Below, piece after piece: positions 2,401 through 7,561 of a stretch of DNA of 9,491 nucleotides (positions are counted from its first letter, which is position 1; each line of letters begins with the position of its first letter). Under the pieces are notes generated by a model. The model was not told the origin of the DNA and ran no database searches. It saw only the letters and a program-made list of their open reading frames with translations. The stretch lies in IMG/VR virus record IMGVR_UViG_2547132272_000017, positions 1 through 9,491 of that record. One strand, given 5' to 3'. This DNA comes from a virus. Taxonomy: Duplodnaviria; Heunggongvirae; Uroviricota; Caudoviricetes. Both the position numbers and the translations under genes were made by a program.

Positions 2401-3378
2401 TCACCAGTTGAAGTTCGTTGAACCGTAGTCCTGCTCACTGAATCCCGAGATCGGGAGGCCGGTAGTTCGCCCACCTCCGGGAGCGGCTGGCTGTTGCCAG
2501 GATTCCTCGAAATGGCGATCGGGTCCAAAGAACGTCGCGGCCTGCTTCACGAACTGTGTGCCTGTATTTCCTGTAGCACGTACCCAGGCGGCATACCGCT
2601 TCACACCATCAAGCATGGTCTCCGGTTTTATTCCCTCCCTGATACGGGCTTTCCAGGCTTTGAAGGCTGCTGACTTGGAATTGCCACCAGCACGTTTGGG
2701 ATATTCCTGCCAGGCCTGTTCAAATTCCGGTGAATATTCCTGTCGGGCAGAACGCGCTGGTGCAGACGCGTCAGCGGATGCGCCAATAGTGTTTTTAGTC
2801 TCCGTTGTAATCTCTGTAGTAATCTCTGTATTTGTATCAACATTCGGCGTATCCCCTGTTCCGTTATGACGTTGGGGGGTGTTCCGTTTTAACGTAATAG
2901 CTGTATCGCTGATTGCGTTATTGCTGTTACTTTCTGGCGAAACAGAAGAAGGAGTAGTAATGGCAGCAATTGCCTGTGGGTTGATCCCGACAAACAAAAT
3001 ATTGCTGCATTTCACACCATCGAGCATTTCCACCGTGCGTAAATCCAGGGAAATAAACCCGGCATCACGAAGGCGCTTCAACGCATCCGCGGTTTCCCTT
3101 TTCCCGAAACCAAACTGCTCAGCAAACGCCTGATAACTTCTTTGCAGCTTGTCCCCCTGAAAACGCTTGCGATATCCCAGCAAAGCCCCGGTATGCTCAT
3201 CCCTGACTTCTGTCGGGCGGTACCAGTAAACGATCTCTGAGAGCAGGGCGATAGCGGTCGCATCCGGACGACCACTGGGTAGCCGAATATGTTTCCACCA
3301 GTTCGCTGGTGTGACATTGCCGGAAATATTAATTTGACCAATAGCTATAACTTCCGGTGTGGGGGCGTAACGACTCAT
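2401..3378 (-). CDS. Phage replication initiation / replisome-organiser protein (O-like)
   Basis: 325-aa ORF immediately upstream of the DnaC-like and DnaB-like genes, with a strong SD (AAGGAGG). N-terminal region resembles phage replisome-organiser proteins; a low-complexity linker (TEITTEITTE) separates it from a C-terminal domain. Assignment rests on position and architecture, not on a searched match. Confidence 0.6.
   Translation of the reverse strand: MSRYAPTPEVIAIGQINISGNVTPANWWKHIRLPSGRPDATAIALLSEIVYWYRPTEVRDEHTGALLGYRKRFQGDKLQRSYQAFAEQFGFGKRETADALKRLRDAGFISLDLRTVEMLDGVKCSNILFVGINPQAIAAITTPSSVSPESNSNNAISDTAITLKRNTPQRHNGTGDTPNVDTNTEITTEITTETKNTIGASADASAPARSARQEYSPEFEQAWQEYPKRAGGNSKSAAFKAWKARIREGIKPETMLDGVKRYAAWVRATGNTGTQFVKQAATFFGPDRHFEESWQQPAAPGGGRTTGLPISGFSEQDYGSTNFNW
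2807..2830. repeat. Perfect tandem 12-bp direct repeat (gtaatctctgta x2) inside the O-like gene
   Basis: Read directly: 2807-2818 and 2819-2830 are identical, followed by a partial third unit (tttgta). Encodes the TEITTEIT linker on the minus strand. Confidence 0.7.
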
Positions 3379-3674
3379 ACAGCCTCCTTACGCGGCATAA
3401 CAATGGTGTAACCCCGGGCAGGCTGGAGCCGGGCTTTTGCATCAATAGTGAGCGTTGCAATTTTTCGGATACGCAGATACCCTGCCCTTTCCAGGGTCAG
3501 GGTTTCTCTGAACATTGCCTGTTTTGAACAGCAACAAAAATCGGCAAGGACCTGGTGATCAATAACCCTCTCACCTTCACCGTCTGAAGAACCCGACATC
3601 AAAACACGCAACATAATCAGGCGCTGAATCGGATTATCGAAAACACTTCCGCATACAAACTGAAAACAGTTCAC
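3375..3674 (-). CDS. Hypothetical protein (99 aa, GTG start)
   Basis: GTG start at 3674 preceded by GGGAGG at good spacing. Start overlaps the upstream stop (GTGA) and the stop overlaps the O-like start (ATGA). The C-terminal half (QVLADFCCCSKQAMFRETLTLERAGYLRIRK) may be a winged-helix-like segment; this is unverified. Confidence 0.5.
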   Translation of the reverse strand: MNCFQFVCGSVFDNPIQRLIMLRVLMSGSSDGEGERVIDHQVLADFCCCSKQAMFRETLTLERAGYLRIRKIATLTIDAKARLQPARGYTIVMPRKEAV

Positions 3675-3895
3675 ACGGCACCTCCCAGGCGTTTAAACAT
3701 TTTTCCGGACTGAAACGCCACCAGTGGGTAACTGATGGTGTAGTTACGCCCCAGTAATTCACACACGACTTTCTGGCTTTCGGTACTGACCAGGCAAACC
3801 CGCAGAACATGGCCGTTGCTGGTGGCAAACCACTGCCCCACACGGGGGCAACGGTTGTATCGGTGATACAGGGAATTAACGACGCGGCGAATCAT
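3671..3895 (-). CDS. Hypothetical protein (74 aa; alternative start at 3910 would give 79 aa)
   Basis: ATG at 3895 overlaps the stop of the upstream 220-aa gene (ATGA), indicating translational coupling. No recognisable domain. Confidence 0.45.
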   Translation of the reverse strand: MIRRVVNSLYHRYNRCPRVGQWFATSNGHVLRVCLVSTESQKVVCELLGRNYTISYPLVAFQSGKMFKRLGGAV

Positions 3896-4554
3896 GGGCG
3901 CACTTCCCATTGATTACGGCGGAAAGCAGTGTGATTCAGGCTGGTTTCAGCCTCATGGAATGCTTCAATGCAGCTCTCGTAGTACCGCATTGTGCGCAGA
4001 CTTAACCCAAGCTGAAGCATCATCAGACCATCAAGGGTGATGTAATAACCACGCAGGGAATCGCCATACACGTGGTAAGTACCCGGAATGAAATTACGGG
4101 AGAAGAATTCACGTGAGCAGTTCAGATACTCGATTTTGTCGACGATGTTCTGGTGCATGCGCTTAAAGTGGCAGGCAACATGCAGGGAGAAAATAACAGC
4201 TTTGCCGTTGACGACTTCGATTTTCAGGTATGGGGAAGTTGGGACTGTAGCCATGATGGCAGCCTCCGTATGCAATGGATAACTTCCACCACCGGAAACG
4301 CCAATTTCACTGGTGGTGAACTGAACGGGGTTGGCGTAACCGGCGCATACGGAAACCGGCGCATCTTTCGATGCCCCCGCCCAGCCCACCATAATCTGGA
4401 TGTGAGCAAATGCGGACGATAAAAAAGACGCTGGCGCGTCGTATATCGCCGTATGCAATTCCAGGACGCCAATCCCGGCACCCGCTTTATAAGGTGCCAG
4501 AACAGTGTAACGTCCCGAAATTGCAGAATCAATATTTAGGCTTGAAACATTCAT
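3892..4554 (-). CDS. Hypothetical protein (220 aa)
   Basis: Longest ORF in this interval, on the same strand as the flanking operon; ORFs in other frames are shorter shadows. No clear SD upstream of the ATG at 4554 and no recognised motif. Confidence 0.55.
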   Translation of the reverse strand: MNVSSLNIDSAISGRYTVLAPYKAGAGIGVLELHTAIYDAPASFLSSAFAHIQIMVGWAGASKDAPVSVCAGYANPVQFTTSEIGVSGGGSYPLHTEAAIMATVPTSPYLKIEVVNGKAVIFSLHVACHFKRMHQNIVDKIEYLNCSREFFSRNFIPGTYHVYGDSLRGYYITLDGLMMLQLGLSLRTMRYYESCIEAFHEAETSLNHTAFRRNQWEVRP

Positions 4555-4631: not shown

Positions 4632-4657
4632 AGCCGGGTTACTACCCGGCTTTTTTT
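4632..4657 (+). terminator. Intrinsic terminator-type hairpin (8-bp GC-rich stem AGCCGGGT/ACCCGGCT, 4-nt loop) followed by T7 on the + strand
   Basis: Read directly: stem 4632-4639 / 4644-4651, T-run 4651-4657. Canonical for + strand transcription; on the minus strand it sits immediately after the Rha stop codon, preceded by an A-tract with no U-tract after it. Confidence 0.6.
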
Positions 4658-5388
4658 CACCGCTGCCAACCAATAACCTGAAATAACCCCATTTTCGGGT
4701 GATACCAGCGAGTCCCTCGCGGTTCTGCTTCCTCCATAACCCGATAAAAAGCAGCCATAAACGGTTCCACAGCAACAATTGCGCGACGTGACAACAATCC
4801 GTCCGGCGTCATGAACTCATGGGTGTCTGTAGGAATTTGATAGGCGTTCACCAGATTGCGGCATTTATCATCTGACAAACCGGTTTTTGCTTTCAGTTGG
4901 CGATATCCGGCATAGCCCTCACGAATGGTGCCCTTTTTGATTTGCTCAACTGTTTCGGCAACATGGCTGACTTTTTCTTCCACCTGAGTGATCCGTTTCT
5001 GCTGGCGAACAGCTTCAAGAGCCATCGCTGCAACCATTTCGATTTCGCTCATTGGCTTACGGATCTGTTCTTCCAGTTCGCGCCAGCGATCTACCAGGCG
5101 AGCAGTGAATTCAGGACAGAGCTGTGCGACGACAATGATGCTGTCGCGCTTACCTTGTTCTCCTTCAAACAGGTAATGCTCATATTGAACTTTAAAACCT
5201 AAGTTATTGATTCTTTCGGAAACCTCAATTTGAGGAGACCGGACAACGCCACCTTTGGCTAATGTTTCAATAGTGCGTTTCACATTGTCATGACGTTTAC
5301 CCACCAGCTCTGCGATTTCAACGCTGGTCATGGATACTTTGTCGTTAAAAATTGCAGCGTTCATTGTTGCCTCTTTACGAAAAACCAT
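4657..5388 (-). CDS. rha: Rha-family phage regulatory protein
   Basis: N-terminal signature SMTSVEIAELVGKRHDNVKRTIETL is typical of the Rha domain. Two candidate in-frame starts, ATG 5388 (SD AGAGG) and ATG 5364 (SD AAAGAGG); the longer is annotated. Confidence 0.8.
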   Translation of the reverse strand: MVFRKEATMNAAIFNDKVSMTSVEIAELVGKRHDNVKRTIETLAKGGVVRSPQIEVSERINNLGFKVQYEHYLFEGEQGKRDSIIVVAQLCPEFTARLVDRWRELEEQIRKPMSEIEMVAAMALEAVRQQKRITQVEEKVSHVAETVEQIKKGTIREGYAGYRQLKAKTGLSDDKCRNLVNAYQIPTDTHEFMTPDGLLSRRAIVAVEPFMAAFYRVMEEAEPRGTRWYHPKMGLFQVIGWQR

Positions 5389-5535: not shown

Positions 5536-5781
5536 ATGTCAAATACCCAACATCTAAAAGCGGCGGATCCCGTTTTACGCCTCAATGCACTTGAAACGGT
5601 TGTTCGGGCGATGCTGTCGAGCATGACACCCGAGCAAATAAACAAAGCGCGATTGATTGCTACTCGTGGTGCCCAATTAGCAGCCCTAGATCCATTGCTC
5701 ACTCCTGCGAATCGCGAAGATGTAGAGCACATTCAGGGGATGGTTGATTATTTATTCGCCCATATTCCTGATCAGATTTGA
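5536..5781 (+). CDS. Hypothetical protein (81 aa), convergent with cro, inside the rightward early region
   Basis: Strong SD GGAGGA 5 nt before the ATG at 5536. Protein-like composition (MSNTQHLKAADPVLRLNALETVVRAML...). A hairpin plus T-rich tract lies downstream. The antisense ORF 5520..5732 has biased Ser/Ala/Arg content typical of a shadow frame. Confidence 0.55.
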   Translation: MSNTQHLKAADPVLRLNALETVVRAMLSSMTPEQINKARLIATRGAQLAALDPLLTPANREDVEHIQGMVDYLFAHIPDQI

Positions 5782-5813: not shown

Positions 5814-5844
5814 GCCGCCGCTTCGAGCCTGGCGGCTTCTTTAT
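5814..5844 (+). terminator. Hairpin (GCCGCC / GGCGGC stem, 11-nt loop) followed by TTCTTTAT, between convergent genes
   Basis: Stem 5814-5819 / 5831-5836 read directly, T-rich tract 5837-5844. Lies 33 nt after the + gene stop and 27 nt after the cro stop on the other strand. Confidence 0.4.
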
Positions 5845-5862: not shown

Positions 5863-6108
5863 TCACTTCTCGTCCTCTGTGTGCGCTAAGCTTGGGTGTG
5901 GAAAAAGCTCTGGTAGGTCTGGACGAAATTCATACGCTTGGATCTTTCCGTCGACAGCTGCAACCAATAACGGCACAAATTCTGGTGAAATCTTGTTCTT
6001 GCAGTTCAACCAATCGCAGACTGTTGACTGGGCCTTTCCGCATCGCTTGGCTAAGGCTTGCTGACTTCCAAGAATCTCAATAGCTTTCTCTATGGCTTTA
6101 TGTTTCAT
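5863..6108 (-). CDS. cro: Cro-like HTH regulator (YdaS-type)
   Basis: Divergent from the cI-like gene across the operator region. Pattern AIEKAIEILGSQQALAKRCGKAQSTVCDWL...EFRPD matches the YdaS/Cro-like HTH family. Start set at ATG 6108 (MKHKAIEK...) with SD AGGAGA; the ORF track's longer start lacks an RBS. Confidence 0.75.
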   Translation of the reverse strand: MKHKAIEKAIEILGSQQALAKRCGKAQSTVCDWLNCKNKISPEFVPLLVAAVDGKIQAYEFRPDLPELFPHPSLAHTEDEK

Positions 6109-6227
6109 AATCGCATCTCCTATTGAACGCATAATAACAACAGGAAAAGCGATATTCAACGTTAAACCTAGAACATTTATCGGAAAGCCGATAGACTAGC
6201 CAGGATAGAGAGGGGAGGAAAATCGCA
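6109..6227. promoter_or_regulatory. Divergent control region (OR analogue) between cro and cI, with operator-like sites
   Basis: 119-bp spacer between the divergent HTH genes. Contains the palindrome TATCGGAAAGCCGATA (6178-6193) and weaker related copies at 6109-6124 and 6139-6154 (core ATCG-N6-CGAT). Confidence 0.7.
6131..6159 (-). promoter_or_regulatory. PR-like sigma70 promoter for cro (-35 TTGAAT, 17-bp spacer, -10 TATTAT, minus strand)
   Basis: Minus-strand reading: -35 is the complement of 6154-6159, -10 the complement of 6131-6136. This leaves a leader of about 16 nt carrying the cro SD. Confidence 0.5.
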
Positions 6228-6920
6228 ATGACATTTTCAGAACGACTTGATTTAGCTATGCGCAACGCAAAATTTACGCAAGGTAGGCTGGCCAAAGAAG
6301 TGGGTATGGCTCAGTCCAGTGTCAATCAACTACTTAACAAAGCCAACGGTTCCAGAAAAACAGTCGAAATAGCAAAAGTTTTGGGCGTTAACCCGGAATG
6401 GCTCGCATCGGGTGTTGGCCCAATGGAAATCGTGACCTCTGCAGACTCACACCAAATACGTAACATTTCTGAAGATTGGGTTACTGATTCGTATGTCGTG
6501 GATGTTTTAGACATCAGATATAGTTGCGGACCTGGTAGTTATAACTCTGATTTTCCTGACATTGTCAGATCTATAGCGATAGAACCAGGATACGCATCAA
6601 GAGTTTTTGGCGGCAGGCCAGCATCAGCAATCAAAGCAATAAACGCCCACGGCGACAGTATGAAAGGCACAATAGACCCTGAAGACTTGGTATTTGTAGA
6701 TGTATCAGTTCGCACATTTAATGGTGATGGTATATACGCCTTTACATACTCTGGAACATCGCACATCAAAAGACTTCAAAAAATCAAAGATACTCTAACG
6801 GTGATATCTGACAACCCAGCTTACAAGGATTGGGCTATCGAACCGGAAGACTTCGAACAACTTCACATTGACGGAAAAGTAATTGTCAGTTGGCCCATGA
6901 CACTACACCGTTTTGCATAA
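6228..6920 (+). CDS. cI: CI-like prophage repressor: N-terminal HTH plus C-terminal LexA/S24-type autopeptidase
   Basis: HTH (FTQGRLAKEVGMAQSSVNQLL); S24 motifs GDSM with a Lys about 38 residues downstream (HIKRL); possible Ala-Gly-type cleavage region (LASGVG). SD GGAGG 10 nt upstream of the ATG. Confidence 0.9.
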   Translation: MTFSERLDLAMRNAKFTQGRLAKEVGMAQSSVNQLLNKANGSRKTVEIAKVLGVNPEWLASGVGPMEIVTSADSHQIRNISEDWVTDSYVVDVLDIRYSCGPGSYNSDFPDIVRSIAIEPGYASRVFGGRPASAIKAINAHGDSMKGTIDPEDLVFVDVSVRTFNGDGIYAFTYSGTSHIKRLQKIKDTLTVISDNPAYKDWAIEPEDFEQLHIDGKVIVSWPMTLHRFA

Positions 6921-6938
6921 GCAAAAATCATTTAACCC

Positions 6939-6964
6939 GCCCACTCTTAAGTGGGCTTTTTTTT
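6939..6964 (+). terminator. Rho-independent terminator after cI (stem GCCCACT / AGTGGGC, loop CTTA, T8)
   Basis: Read directly: stem 6939-6945 / 6950-6956, T-run 6957-6964, 19 nt after the cI stop. Confidence 0.8.
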
Positions 6965-6971
6965 GGAAAAA

Positions 6972-7012
6972 AATCGATAAACCGATTGACAGACAAAATC
7001 GGCAAACCTATT
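6972..7012. promoter_or_regulatory. Two operator-like sites (OL analogue) overlapping the PL-like promoter
   Basis: AATCGATAAACCGATT (6972-6987, overlaps the -35) and AATCGGCAAACCTATT (6997-7012, overlaps the -10) share the core ATCG-N6-C(G/T)AT with the OR palindrome. Centre-to-centre spacing is 25 bp. Confidence 0.55.
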
Positions 7013-7014
7013 AT
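6986..7014 (+). promoter_or_regulatory. Near-consensus sigma70 promoter (TTGACA, 17 bp, TATTAT): PL analogue
   Basis: -35 TTGACA at 6986-6991, 17-bp spacer, -10 TATTAT at 7009-7014; about 50 nt upstream of the ATG at 7064. Confidence 0.7.
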
Positions 7015-7063
7015 CATGGCATAGGTATCGAACTCACCAAAGCAATTATAGAGGATGAGAAAA

Positions 7064-7561
7064 ATGTCATCGTATATGGGGTTACCAACAAATCAGCACG
7101 ATGCTCTTGAGAATATTCAACTCTTAGTAGGGGCTGGTGCACTACTGTATAGCAGCAATAATCCTGAGTTAATTGAACTTGCCAGCTCCATCCTGGCTGT
7201 AACTCAAAAATACAGCCTCACCGCGTCGCGTTTATGCAAACAAAATTTAGCTATTAATTCCCAGAATCGGATTCGCACCCAACGCGAAGCCTGCGGCTTA
7301 ACAACCGCCGAACTCGCCAGGCTGCTCGATCTCGATGAAGAAATTATCATCCAGTGGGAGAGCGGAGAGTATGAACCAACTATCAGTATGCTTATCCCAC
7401 TGGCAAATATTCTTGGCTGCGATCCGATGTGGCTGTTAACTGGCGAAGTTACTCCTCCGGAGCAACCAAAAAGTGAGGAGCAGCAACACCATGACGCATC
7501 TCAACAAGTTTGCTCCTTATCTCGCGAAGCTCTTCTACGGAAGAACCAATACCAATGGTGA
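7064..7561 (+). CDS. XRE-family HTH protein with an uncharacterised N-terminal region (166 aa); first gene of the leftward operon
   Basis: SD GAGGA 8 nt before the ATG at 7064. HTH_XRE signature in the C-terminal half (IRTQREACGLTTAELARLLDLDEEIIIQWESGEYEPTISMLIPLANILG). No Arg-rich N-type motif. Confidence 0.7.
   Translation: MSSYMGLPTNQHDALENIQLLVGAGALLYSSNNPELIELASSILAVTQKYSLTASRLCKQNLAINSQNRIRTQREACGLTTAELARLLDLDEEIIIQWESGEYEPTISMLIPLANILGCDPMWLLTGEVTPPEQPKSEEQQHHDASQQVCSLSREALLRKNQYQW

Follow-up and report, generated by a model that had tools for sequence, protein, structure and literature searches.

The stretch of DNA analysed here (9.5 kb; 9,491 bases), called the window throughout, represents the early region of an E. 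coli prophage of the lambdoid type, and its immunity region contains a cI repressor gene and a small cro-like gene that are oriented divergently. The minus strand encodes a DnaB-type helicase, a DnaC-like loader, a replication initiator and two Ash/Rha-type regulators, and also carries the cro-like gene (6108-5863), whose ATG at 6108 is also the start annotated in relatives. The plus strand carries cI (6228-6920), separated from cro by a spacer of 119 bp, then an intrinsic terminator (6939-6964; T8 after a stem of 7 bp), and beyond it a strong promoter with a series of small genes. The first of these (7064-7561) encodes a helix-turn-helix (HTH) protein of the HTH_3 type; its open reading frame (ORF) extends upstream to 7055, and relatives annotate the ATG at 7064. 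Five copies of a palindromic motif, three in the cro-cI spacer and two at the promoter after cI, are considered here as candidate operators.

The identities of both regulatory genes, as proposed in a preliminary description of the region, hold. The cI product (230 amino acids) combines an HTH domain with a Peptidase_S24 domain (Pfam 7.5e-17; phrog_4 1.4e-53), and the cro product (81 amino acids) is a Cro-like HTH protein of the YdaS family (Pfam YdaS_toxin 7.7e-15; phrog_35, transcriptional repressor). With a profile of 16 CI homologues, the top structures for the N-terminal domain were the 434 repressor (7.1e-8) and 434 Cro (4e-5), while the C-terminal half matched UmuD best (5e-7). Gln29 of CI aligns with Gln28 of 434, at the start of helix 3, the recognition helix. 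This helix reads QSSVNQ in the 434-like HTH of CI and AQSTVCDW in Cro. The predicted self-cleavage site of CI is Cys100-Gly101 (residues 99-103, SCGPG), with Ser144 and Lys181 as the catalytic dyad; these two residues and Gly101 are invariant among the homologues. SOS induction through CI self-cleavage is to be expected because of this dyad and the invariant glycine, because homologues of at most about 55% identity have Ala-Gly aligned with Cys100-Gly101, and because UmuD also cleaves at Cys-Gly.

The preliminary description had placed a motif ATCG-N6-CGAT on both sides of cI, and all five of its 16-bp sequences can be read directly from the window, each exactly where it had been located. In the spacer, site C (6178-6193, TATCGGAAAGCCGATA) is the best palindrome of the five, with 6+6 symmetric bases, and matches the motif exactly (core 6179-6192). 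The same is true for the motif of OL1, the first left operator site (6972-6987, core 6973-6986, AATCGATAAACCGATT). In OL2 (6997-7012, core 6998-7011, AATCGGCAAACCTATT) and in site A (6109-6124, AATCGCATCTCCTATT; core 6110-6123, ATCGCATCTCCTAT), CGAT is replaced by CTAT. Site B (6139-6154, AACAGGAAAAGCGATA; core 6140-6153, ACAGGAAAAGCGAT) has a good right half and the left half ACAG. Judged by the alleles of relatives, the tolerated half-site is AT(C/A)G, which makes CTAT a normal variant and not a defect. The two spacer copies that had been called weaker sit on the promoter of cro, and the best palindrome lies on the inferred promoter of cI. Measured between centres, A and B are separated by 30 bp, B and C by 39 bp, and OL1 and OL2 by 25 bp. 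In the window two OL sites were found and no third one; the terminator abuts OL1. The weight matrix built from sites of diverged relatives has strong outer positions and a centre that prefers A/T, and A is invariant at position 1 of the sites.

The positions of these sites relative to the promoters are informative. The PL-equivalent (leftward) promoter on the plus strand (6986-7014) consists of TTGACA (6986-6991), a 17-bp spacer and TATTAT (7009-7014), with 11 of 12 matches. The last T of the OL1 core (6986) is the first T of its -35 hexamer, and the OL2 core extends into the first bases of its -10, so that the two copies after cI indeed overlap the -35 and the -10 of this promoter, as had been claimed. 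For the right operator (OR), a promoter scan gave a candidate rightward promoter, PR, on the minus strand (6159-6131), with the -35 TTGAAT (6159-6154), a 17-bp spacer and a TG-extended -10 TATTAT (6136-6131). Homologous promoters are found in the Salmonella locus L088, the 83% identical E. coli variant L090, the Plesiomonas locus L093 and locus L097. The core of site B (6153-6140) fills the PR spacer, beginning right after the -35 and stopping 3 nucleotides before the -10. The core of site A (6123-6110) begins 7 nucleotides past the -10, covers approximately +1 to +14 and ends one base before the cro ATG, thereby containing the cro Shine-Dalgarno sequence. In L090, site A lies 12 nucleotides away from the cro ATG and is without a Shine-Dalgarno sequence, yet the distance of 7 nucleotides from the -10 is kept. 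This arrangement, although a single case, argues for site A as an operator and against conservation for translation alone.

For cI, we infer a maintenance promoter (PRM) on the plus strand at 6169-6197, with the -35 TAGAAC (6169-6174), a 17-bp spacer and the -10 TAGACT (6192-6197); site C would fill its spacer, with the final T of the site serving as the first base of its -10. Transcription is predicted to start near 6124 for PR (minus strand) and near 6204 for PRM and 7021 for PL (both plus strand). The promoter was placed here because Plesiomonas L093 (TTGATT, 17 bp, TATAAT) and Klebsiella phage Mulock (TTGCCA, 17 bp, TAGGAT) have promoters at the homologous position relative to site C, and in both of them the -10 begins with the last T of site C. 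In all relatives the centre of site C lies 37-42 bp before the cI ATG, which had prompted the idea of a leaderless cI transcript with site C as an activator site at -41.5. This idea was not adopted, since there is no usable -10 at a suitable position and a strong, conserved Shine-Dalgarno sequence precedes cI.

To assess conservation, the loci of CI homologues and 80 viral contigs were compared. The immunity region is present in 45 of the 5,426 complete E. coli genomes, at a DNA identity of 80-99%. Homologues of CI are 89% and 83% identical in E. coli, 69% in Salmonella and Plesiomonas, 67% in Providencia, 64% in Yersinia, 63% in Edwardsiella and approximately 51% in Enterobacter and others, and a scan of genome contigs with the cI protein gave four loci, at 43-47%. 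In the INPHARED phage collection there is no phage with this immunity region; the best full-length CI, that of Mulock, is 52% identical. A near-identity DNA search of the same collection matched the downstream HTH gene only (phiP27 and Stx phages), and not the immunity region.

Loci whose CI helix is QSS[VI]N[QK] or QSSVWK have sites fitting ATMG-N6-CKAT in the same slots, namely at the cro +1 and ribosome-binding site (RBS), in the PR spacer, ending on the PRM -10, ending on the PL -35 and entering the PL -10. The exceptions are as follows: the second OL site of Providencia L092 (3321-3334) lies downstream of the PL -10, at approximately +1; Yersinia L094 has no site within one mismatch in the cro +1/RBS slot; and L096 (also Providencia) and L029 have no homologous PL, the genes downstream of cI being different. 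The order of -35, site B, 3 nucleotides, -10, 7 nucleotides and site A, with site C ending on the PRM -10, is shared by the E. coli variants, Salmonella, Providencia, Plesiomonas, Yersinia and Mulock. Moreover, OL1 is followed by TGAC in all nine relatives that have OL1. The relatives with the motif at homologous promoter positions have CI proteins of 64-89% identity, and the DNA that separates the sites can no longer be aligned in the more distant loci.

Within the window's own class (QSS[VI]NQ), the invariant columns fall on the half-sites across 16 distinct OR and 22 distinct OL sequences, and the only substitutions are C/A at position 3 and changes in the central bases. The half-sites of site C are invariant in all 16 OR sequences, and site A is invariant in 12 of them, all 12 of the E. 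coli type. The site B slot is occupied in every relative, and its alleles in L002 (ATAGGTAAATCGAT) and L020 (ATAGGAAAAGCGAT) fit the consensus, the left half having changed from ACAG to ATAG. Similarly, the OL2 allele of L002 (ATAGGTAAACCTAT) is a perfect palindrome. In relatives from outside E. coli, OR contains a fourth site, which lies between B and C and immediately upstream of the PR -35 (L088 2428-2441, L092 2427-2440, L096 2441-2454, L097 2429-2442), and some of these relatives have a third OL site (L097 3295-3308, L093 3343-3356). The E. coli type would have either lost these additional sites or never had them. The sequence at the corresponding position of the window (site B', 6157-6172, CAACGTTAAACCTAGA) was rejected as a fourth OR site: there is a real site there in relatives, but B' scores 5.6 and lacks the invariant A at position 1. 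In L093, a minus-strand hairpin of 15 pairs that resembles a terminator (3368-3400) is OL1 pairing with OL2, an artefact of adjacent palindromic operators.

Besides being conserved in position, the motif changes together with the recognition helices. When perfect 5+N+5 palindromes were counted without bias over the 170 bp preceding cI, a spacer of 4 dominated in every helix class (5+N4+5), and each class had its own half-site. The CI helix QSSVNQ, paired with the Cro helix QSTVCDW, goes with ATCGG; QSSVNK with QSTICDW, a class that includes Mulock, goes with ATCGC; QPSVWK with QPSVWAW goes with ATAGC; QPAIQK with QPAVHKW goes with ATAAC; QAAIQK with QAAVQKW goes with ACAAC; and QPTIWR with QPTVWRW goes with ATACG. 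In Salmonella and Providencia, the CI helix QSSINQ goes with ATCG, read as TATCG-N6, and the single Yersinia locus (CI QSSVWK, Cro QSTISEW) has ATCGC. At the first three positions of helix 3, Cro varies in step with CI and with the half-site in the six multi-locus classes listed first, and in seven of eight when the single-locus Yersinia class is counted; the exception is formed by Providencia L092 and L096 (QSSINQ class), where Cro has QPT and CI has QSS. From 434 and P22 it is known that two proteins and the sites they share change jointly. Covariation of helix and half-site is the signature expected of a cognate operator, and it supports this role for the motif as the strongest evidence available short of a footprint. 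An integration host factor (IHF) site had been considered for AATCGATAAACCG, and this reading was rejected since the motif tracks the repressor class. As a separate observation, the distant sister class QAAIQK/QAAVQKW (L035, L041 and related viral contigs) uses ACAAC-N4-GTTGT, which has the outer tetramer of 434, with a helix unlike QQSIEQ of 434.

The tracking by Cro also bears on the possibility that one protein only uses the sites, for instance that CI binds them while Cro recognises a different or overlapping element. The Providencia mismatch between Cro and CI would fit this possibility, and in the PaaR2/YdaS system of CP-933P the point was left open, the exact target sequences of the CI-like protein and YdaS being undetermined and two types of repeat having been seen (PMC8630535). 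Against it, Cro follows CI and the half-site in nearly all classes, which parallels the QQS that is common to CI and Cro of 434. We therefore consider it very unlikely that the two proteins of the window do not share their sites.

A second alternative concerns the sites after cI, which could be bound by the downstream HTH protein (7064-7561) autoregulating its own operon and merely resemble the OR sites. The first gene past the promoter does encode an HTH_3 protein, and promoter-proximal regulators commonly autoregulate. However, the OL and OR sites match the same matrix. Moreover, the OL sites of Mulock, Plesiomonas and Yersinia follow the cI/cro class (ATCGC) and have the same -35 and -10 overlaps, while the genes after the promoter differ and no HTH gene follows it in these loci. 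Since the OL sites follow the cI/cro class despite differing downstream genes, the downstream HTH protein is excluded as the main binder, and autoregulation by this protein is a very improbable explanation.

The nature of the transcription unit after cI follows from relatives as well. In the 99% identical prophage L098 (strain 377323_2f) it consists of the HTH gene, eight small ORFs, an excisionase and an integrase gene, and ends at the host junction. In Mulock the equivalent promoter leads to kil- and gam-like genes, and in the Yersinia locus a gene for an N-like antiterminator is called approximately 1.3 kb downstream of it. Since the unit runs to xis-int in the first case, to kil/gam-like genes in the second and to an N-like gene in the third, it is, judged by its gene content, the PL early-left operon. 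The preliminary description had predicted an accessory operon under repressor control; the control is what a lambdoid design would lead one to expect, but the operon is the early-left one, running to xis-int.

The frequency of the motif is consistent with a regulatory role. In the 9,491 bases, exact ATCG-N6-CGAT occurs twice against 0.14 expected, at 6179-6192 and 6973-6986, both of them among the claimed sites. The pattern ATMG-N6-CKAT, which takes the variation among alleles into account, has five exact matches against 0.47 expected, all of them within 6080-7011, and none of 200 shuffles reached five. In addition, a symmetrised 16-bp weight matrix was trained solely on diverged relatives (Salmonella L088, Providencia L092 and L096, and the E. 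coli variant L090). In the window it ranks the five sites as the top five (OL1 18.9, OL2 17.7, C 16.9, A 16.0 and B 13.1), with 13.3 as the 95th percentile of the null maximum. The motif does not occur at similar density throughout the genome: matches are confined to the regulatory regions, and in 50 kb, comprising the 99% identical prophage and host flank, the same five sites lead and the sole other strong match lies inside the host gene torZ. It is hardly credible that the copies arose by chance, from the composition of AT-rich promoter DNA or as by-products of promoter and ribosome-binding signals: the loose pattern with one mismatch is weak alone (11 matches against 4.0 expected, six of them at unrelated coding positions), site A contains the Shine-Dalgarno sequence and a match inside cro (6080-6093) is explained by Ile-Glu-Lys-Ala-Ile codons, but the exact and matrix matches are far above the null and confined to two regulatory regions, ATCG/CGAT is not required by promoter hexamers, and repressors of different helix classes go with different half-sites at promoter positions that stay fixed.

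The match inside cro (ATAGCTTTCTCTAT; score 7.9) is an exact ATMG-N6-CKAT match 30 bp from site A, and 10 of 11 relatives share it in place. Being probably a by-product of coding, it was rejected as an operator, as it coincides with the codons mentioned and the frequency of exact matches is about that expected from codon choice alone. The regular 30-bp phasing of this match, site A and site B (6086.5, 6116.5 and 6146.5) is a curious side observation. A further sequence at a gene junction in the rightward operon (3627-3642, AATCGGATTATCGAAA) has a matrix score of 11.3, for which 0.19 are expected per window, and is treated as chance.

Taken together, the five sites most probably serve as operators in a lambdoid genetic switch whose immunity specificity had not been characterised before, a reading to which we assign a probability of close to nine in ten. 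The OR/OL logic and the CI/Cro recognition sequence suggested earlier are supported by the conserved positions and by the covariation with both helices. The logic of the switch is itself the textbook design of lambda and 434; the new part is the immunity specificity. A 434-like binding mode with a different half-site is proposed, because the HTH domain is 434-like and the 14-bp geometry is shared. According to the mechanism proposed, CI dimers would bind the 14-bp sequence AT(C/A)G(G)-N4-(C)C(G/T)AT through the recognition helix QSSVNQ, and dimers of the YdaS-type Cro would bind the same sites through QSTVCDW. Binding of CI to OL1 and OL2 would occlude the left promoter and silence the early-left operon toward xis and int, while CI on B and A would block PR and so turn off transcription of cro and the replication genes. 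At high concentration CI, or alternatively Cro, would turn off the weak cI promoter from site C. Induction would proceed by RecA-stimulated self-cleavage at Cys100-Gly101 by the Ser144/Lys181 dyad.

Several points weigh against this interpretation. The PRM of the window is a weak match (7 of 12), falls below detection in the promoter scan and has its placement from homology only. In contrast to lambda, the OR site nearest to the consensus is on PRM and not on PR, so the order of occupancy cannot be assumed. The OR spacings of 30 and 39 bp differ from the 23-24 bp of lambda, leaving cooperative pairing unproven, and the two OL sites found compare with three in lambda and in 434. Because site A overlaps both the Shine-Dalgarno sequence and the ATG of cro, translation signals could explain part of its conservation. 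The score of site B is borderline on sequence alone, although its conserved position supports it. Lastly, none of the operator 14-mers was found in the searchable literature, where the hits were an unrelated 9-mer in primer lists.

If the five sites are indeed the operators, the probable operator is defined for an immunity type present in about 45 of 5,426 E. coli genomes, and superinfection immunity as well as the genes silenced in the lysogen become predictable. With the strongest OR site on the cI promoter and an operator on the cro RBS, the switch may be run mainly by negative autoregulation. A wider generalisation is tentative and rather doubtful at present: there would be at least eight 434-like immunity classes in which residues 2-3 and 6 of helix 3 of CI and Cro change with operator positions 2-5, and the class of the window would depart from lambda in having its strongest OR site on the repressor's own promoter and one operator doubling as the cro RBS. 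If the pairing holds biochemically, it would amount to a recognition code that is ready for use and would supply orthogonal repressor/operator pairs. The related classes form a compact natural dataset for HTH specificity and for building orthogonal switches.

The neighbouring genes show some further features. The HTH_3 gene (7055-7561) occupies the position of lambda N, being the first after the left promoter, and its C-terminal part is 92-98% identical in DNA to genes of phiP27, phi467 and Stx2a phages that are annotated as DicA or transcriptional regulator; in the window no N gene was recognised. The left operon has a leader (7021-7063, GTATCGAACTCACCAAAGCAATTATAGAGGATGAG) that is almost invariant among the E. 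coli variants although the adjacent operators vary, and that contains a lone TATCG half-site at 7027-7031. On the other side, the place taken by cII in lambda is filled after cro by two Ash/Rha/antirepressor-like genes (3892-4554 and 4657-5388, both on the minus strand); a cII-like gene, which Mulock has, was not recognised in the window. A small counter-oriented ORF (5536-5781, plus strand) with its own terminator (5817-5836) lies inside the rightward operon, flanked by cro and the Rha gene. Relatives have a different small gene in this slot, annotated as BssS family in UMNF18, and the slot looks like an exchangeable moron slot.

The layout of the switch resembles that of lambda. Both have divergent cI and cro genes, starts of PR and PRM approximately 80 bp apart (as inferred for the window), one operator centred near -19 of PRM, and a weak PRM, the TAGAAC/TAGACT hexamers of the window resembling those of lambda. 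In both, a second set of operators lies on a strong promoter beyond cI, and the operon that it controls ends in xis-int. However, the operators of the window are 14 bp instead of 17 bp, its CI N-terminal domain is not lambda-like and its most symmetric OR site is on PRM. In addition, the window lacks rexAB between cI and OL, the distance between OL and OR being approximately 0.8 kb.

The CI N-terminal domain is homologous to that of 434, and in both systems CI and Cro share their first helix-3 residues, which are QQS in 434. The 14-bp operators of 434 have conserved outer 4+4 bases and 5+5 contacted bases, while the centre is read indirectly (PMC1636474). In the window, too, the operators have 14 bp, the outer tetramer is conserved, the fifth base is specified in part and the centre is rich in A/T; every class has A at position 1. 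In contrast, the half-site of the window is ATCG(G) and not ACAA, so the phage would be heteroimmune and not of the 434 immunity type. Moreover, the window has three OR sites, 30 and 39 bp apart, one of them on the +1 and the cro RBS. Two OL sites were found in it, and 434 has three sites each in OR and OL. Its Cro belongs to the YdaS family and is no close homologue of 434 Cro, and its predicted cleavage site is Cys-Gly.

A YdaS-family protein acting as Cro opposite a CI-like repressor has been studied experimentally in the PaaR2/YdaS/YdaT system of CP-933P, where the divergent promoters are covered by footprints and there is also an OL-like set downstream (PMC8630535). Different from the window, CP-933P has four 18-bp palindromes at equal intervals with the consensus GTTTAGTAA, and the gene for its CI-like protein is leaderless and has a link to a toxin-antitoxin pair (PMC8630535). 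The closest sequenced phages are Klebsiella phage Mulock (MN098327) and the prophages ST13-OXA48phi12.5 and ST11-VIM1phi8.1, whose CI N-terminal domain is 77% identical to that of the window against 52% for the full-length protein. These have the helix QSSVNK and the half-site ATCGC instead of ATCGG. In addition, the OR of Mulock includes a fourth site and its OL a third, and the Plesiomonas relative likewise has a third OL site. Nevertheless, Mulock and these Klebsiella prophages share the PR, PRM and PL layout of the window, with the sites at the same offsets.

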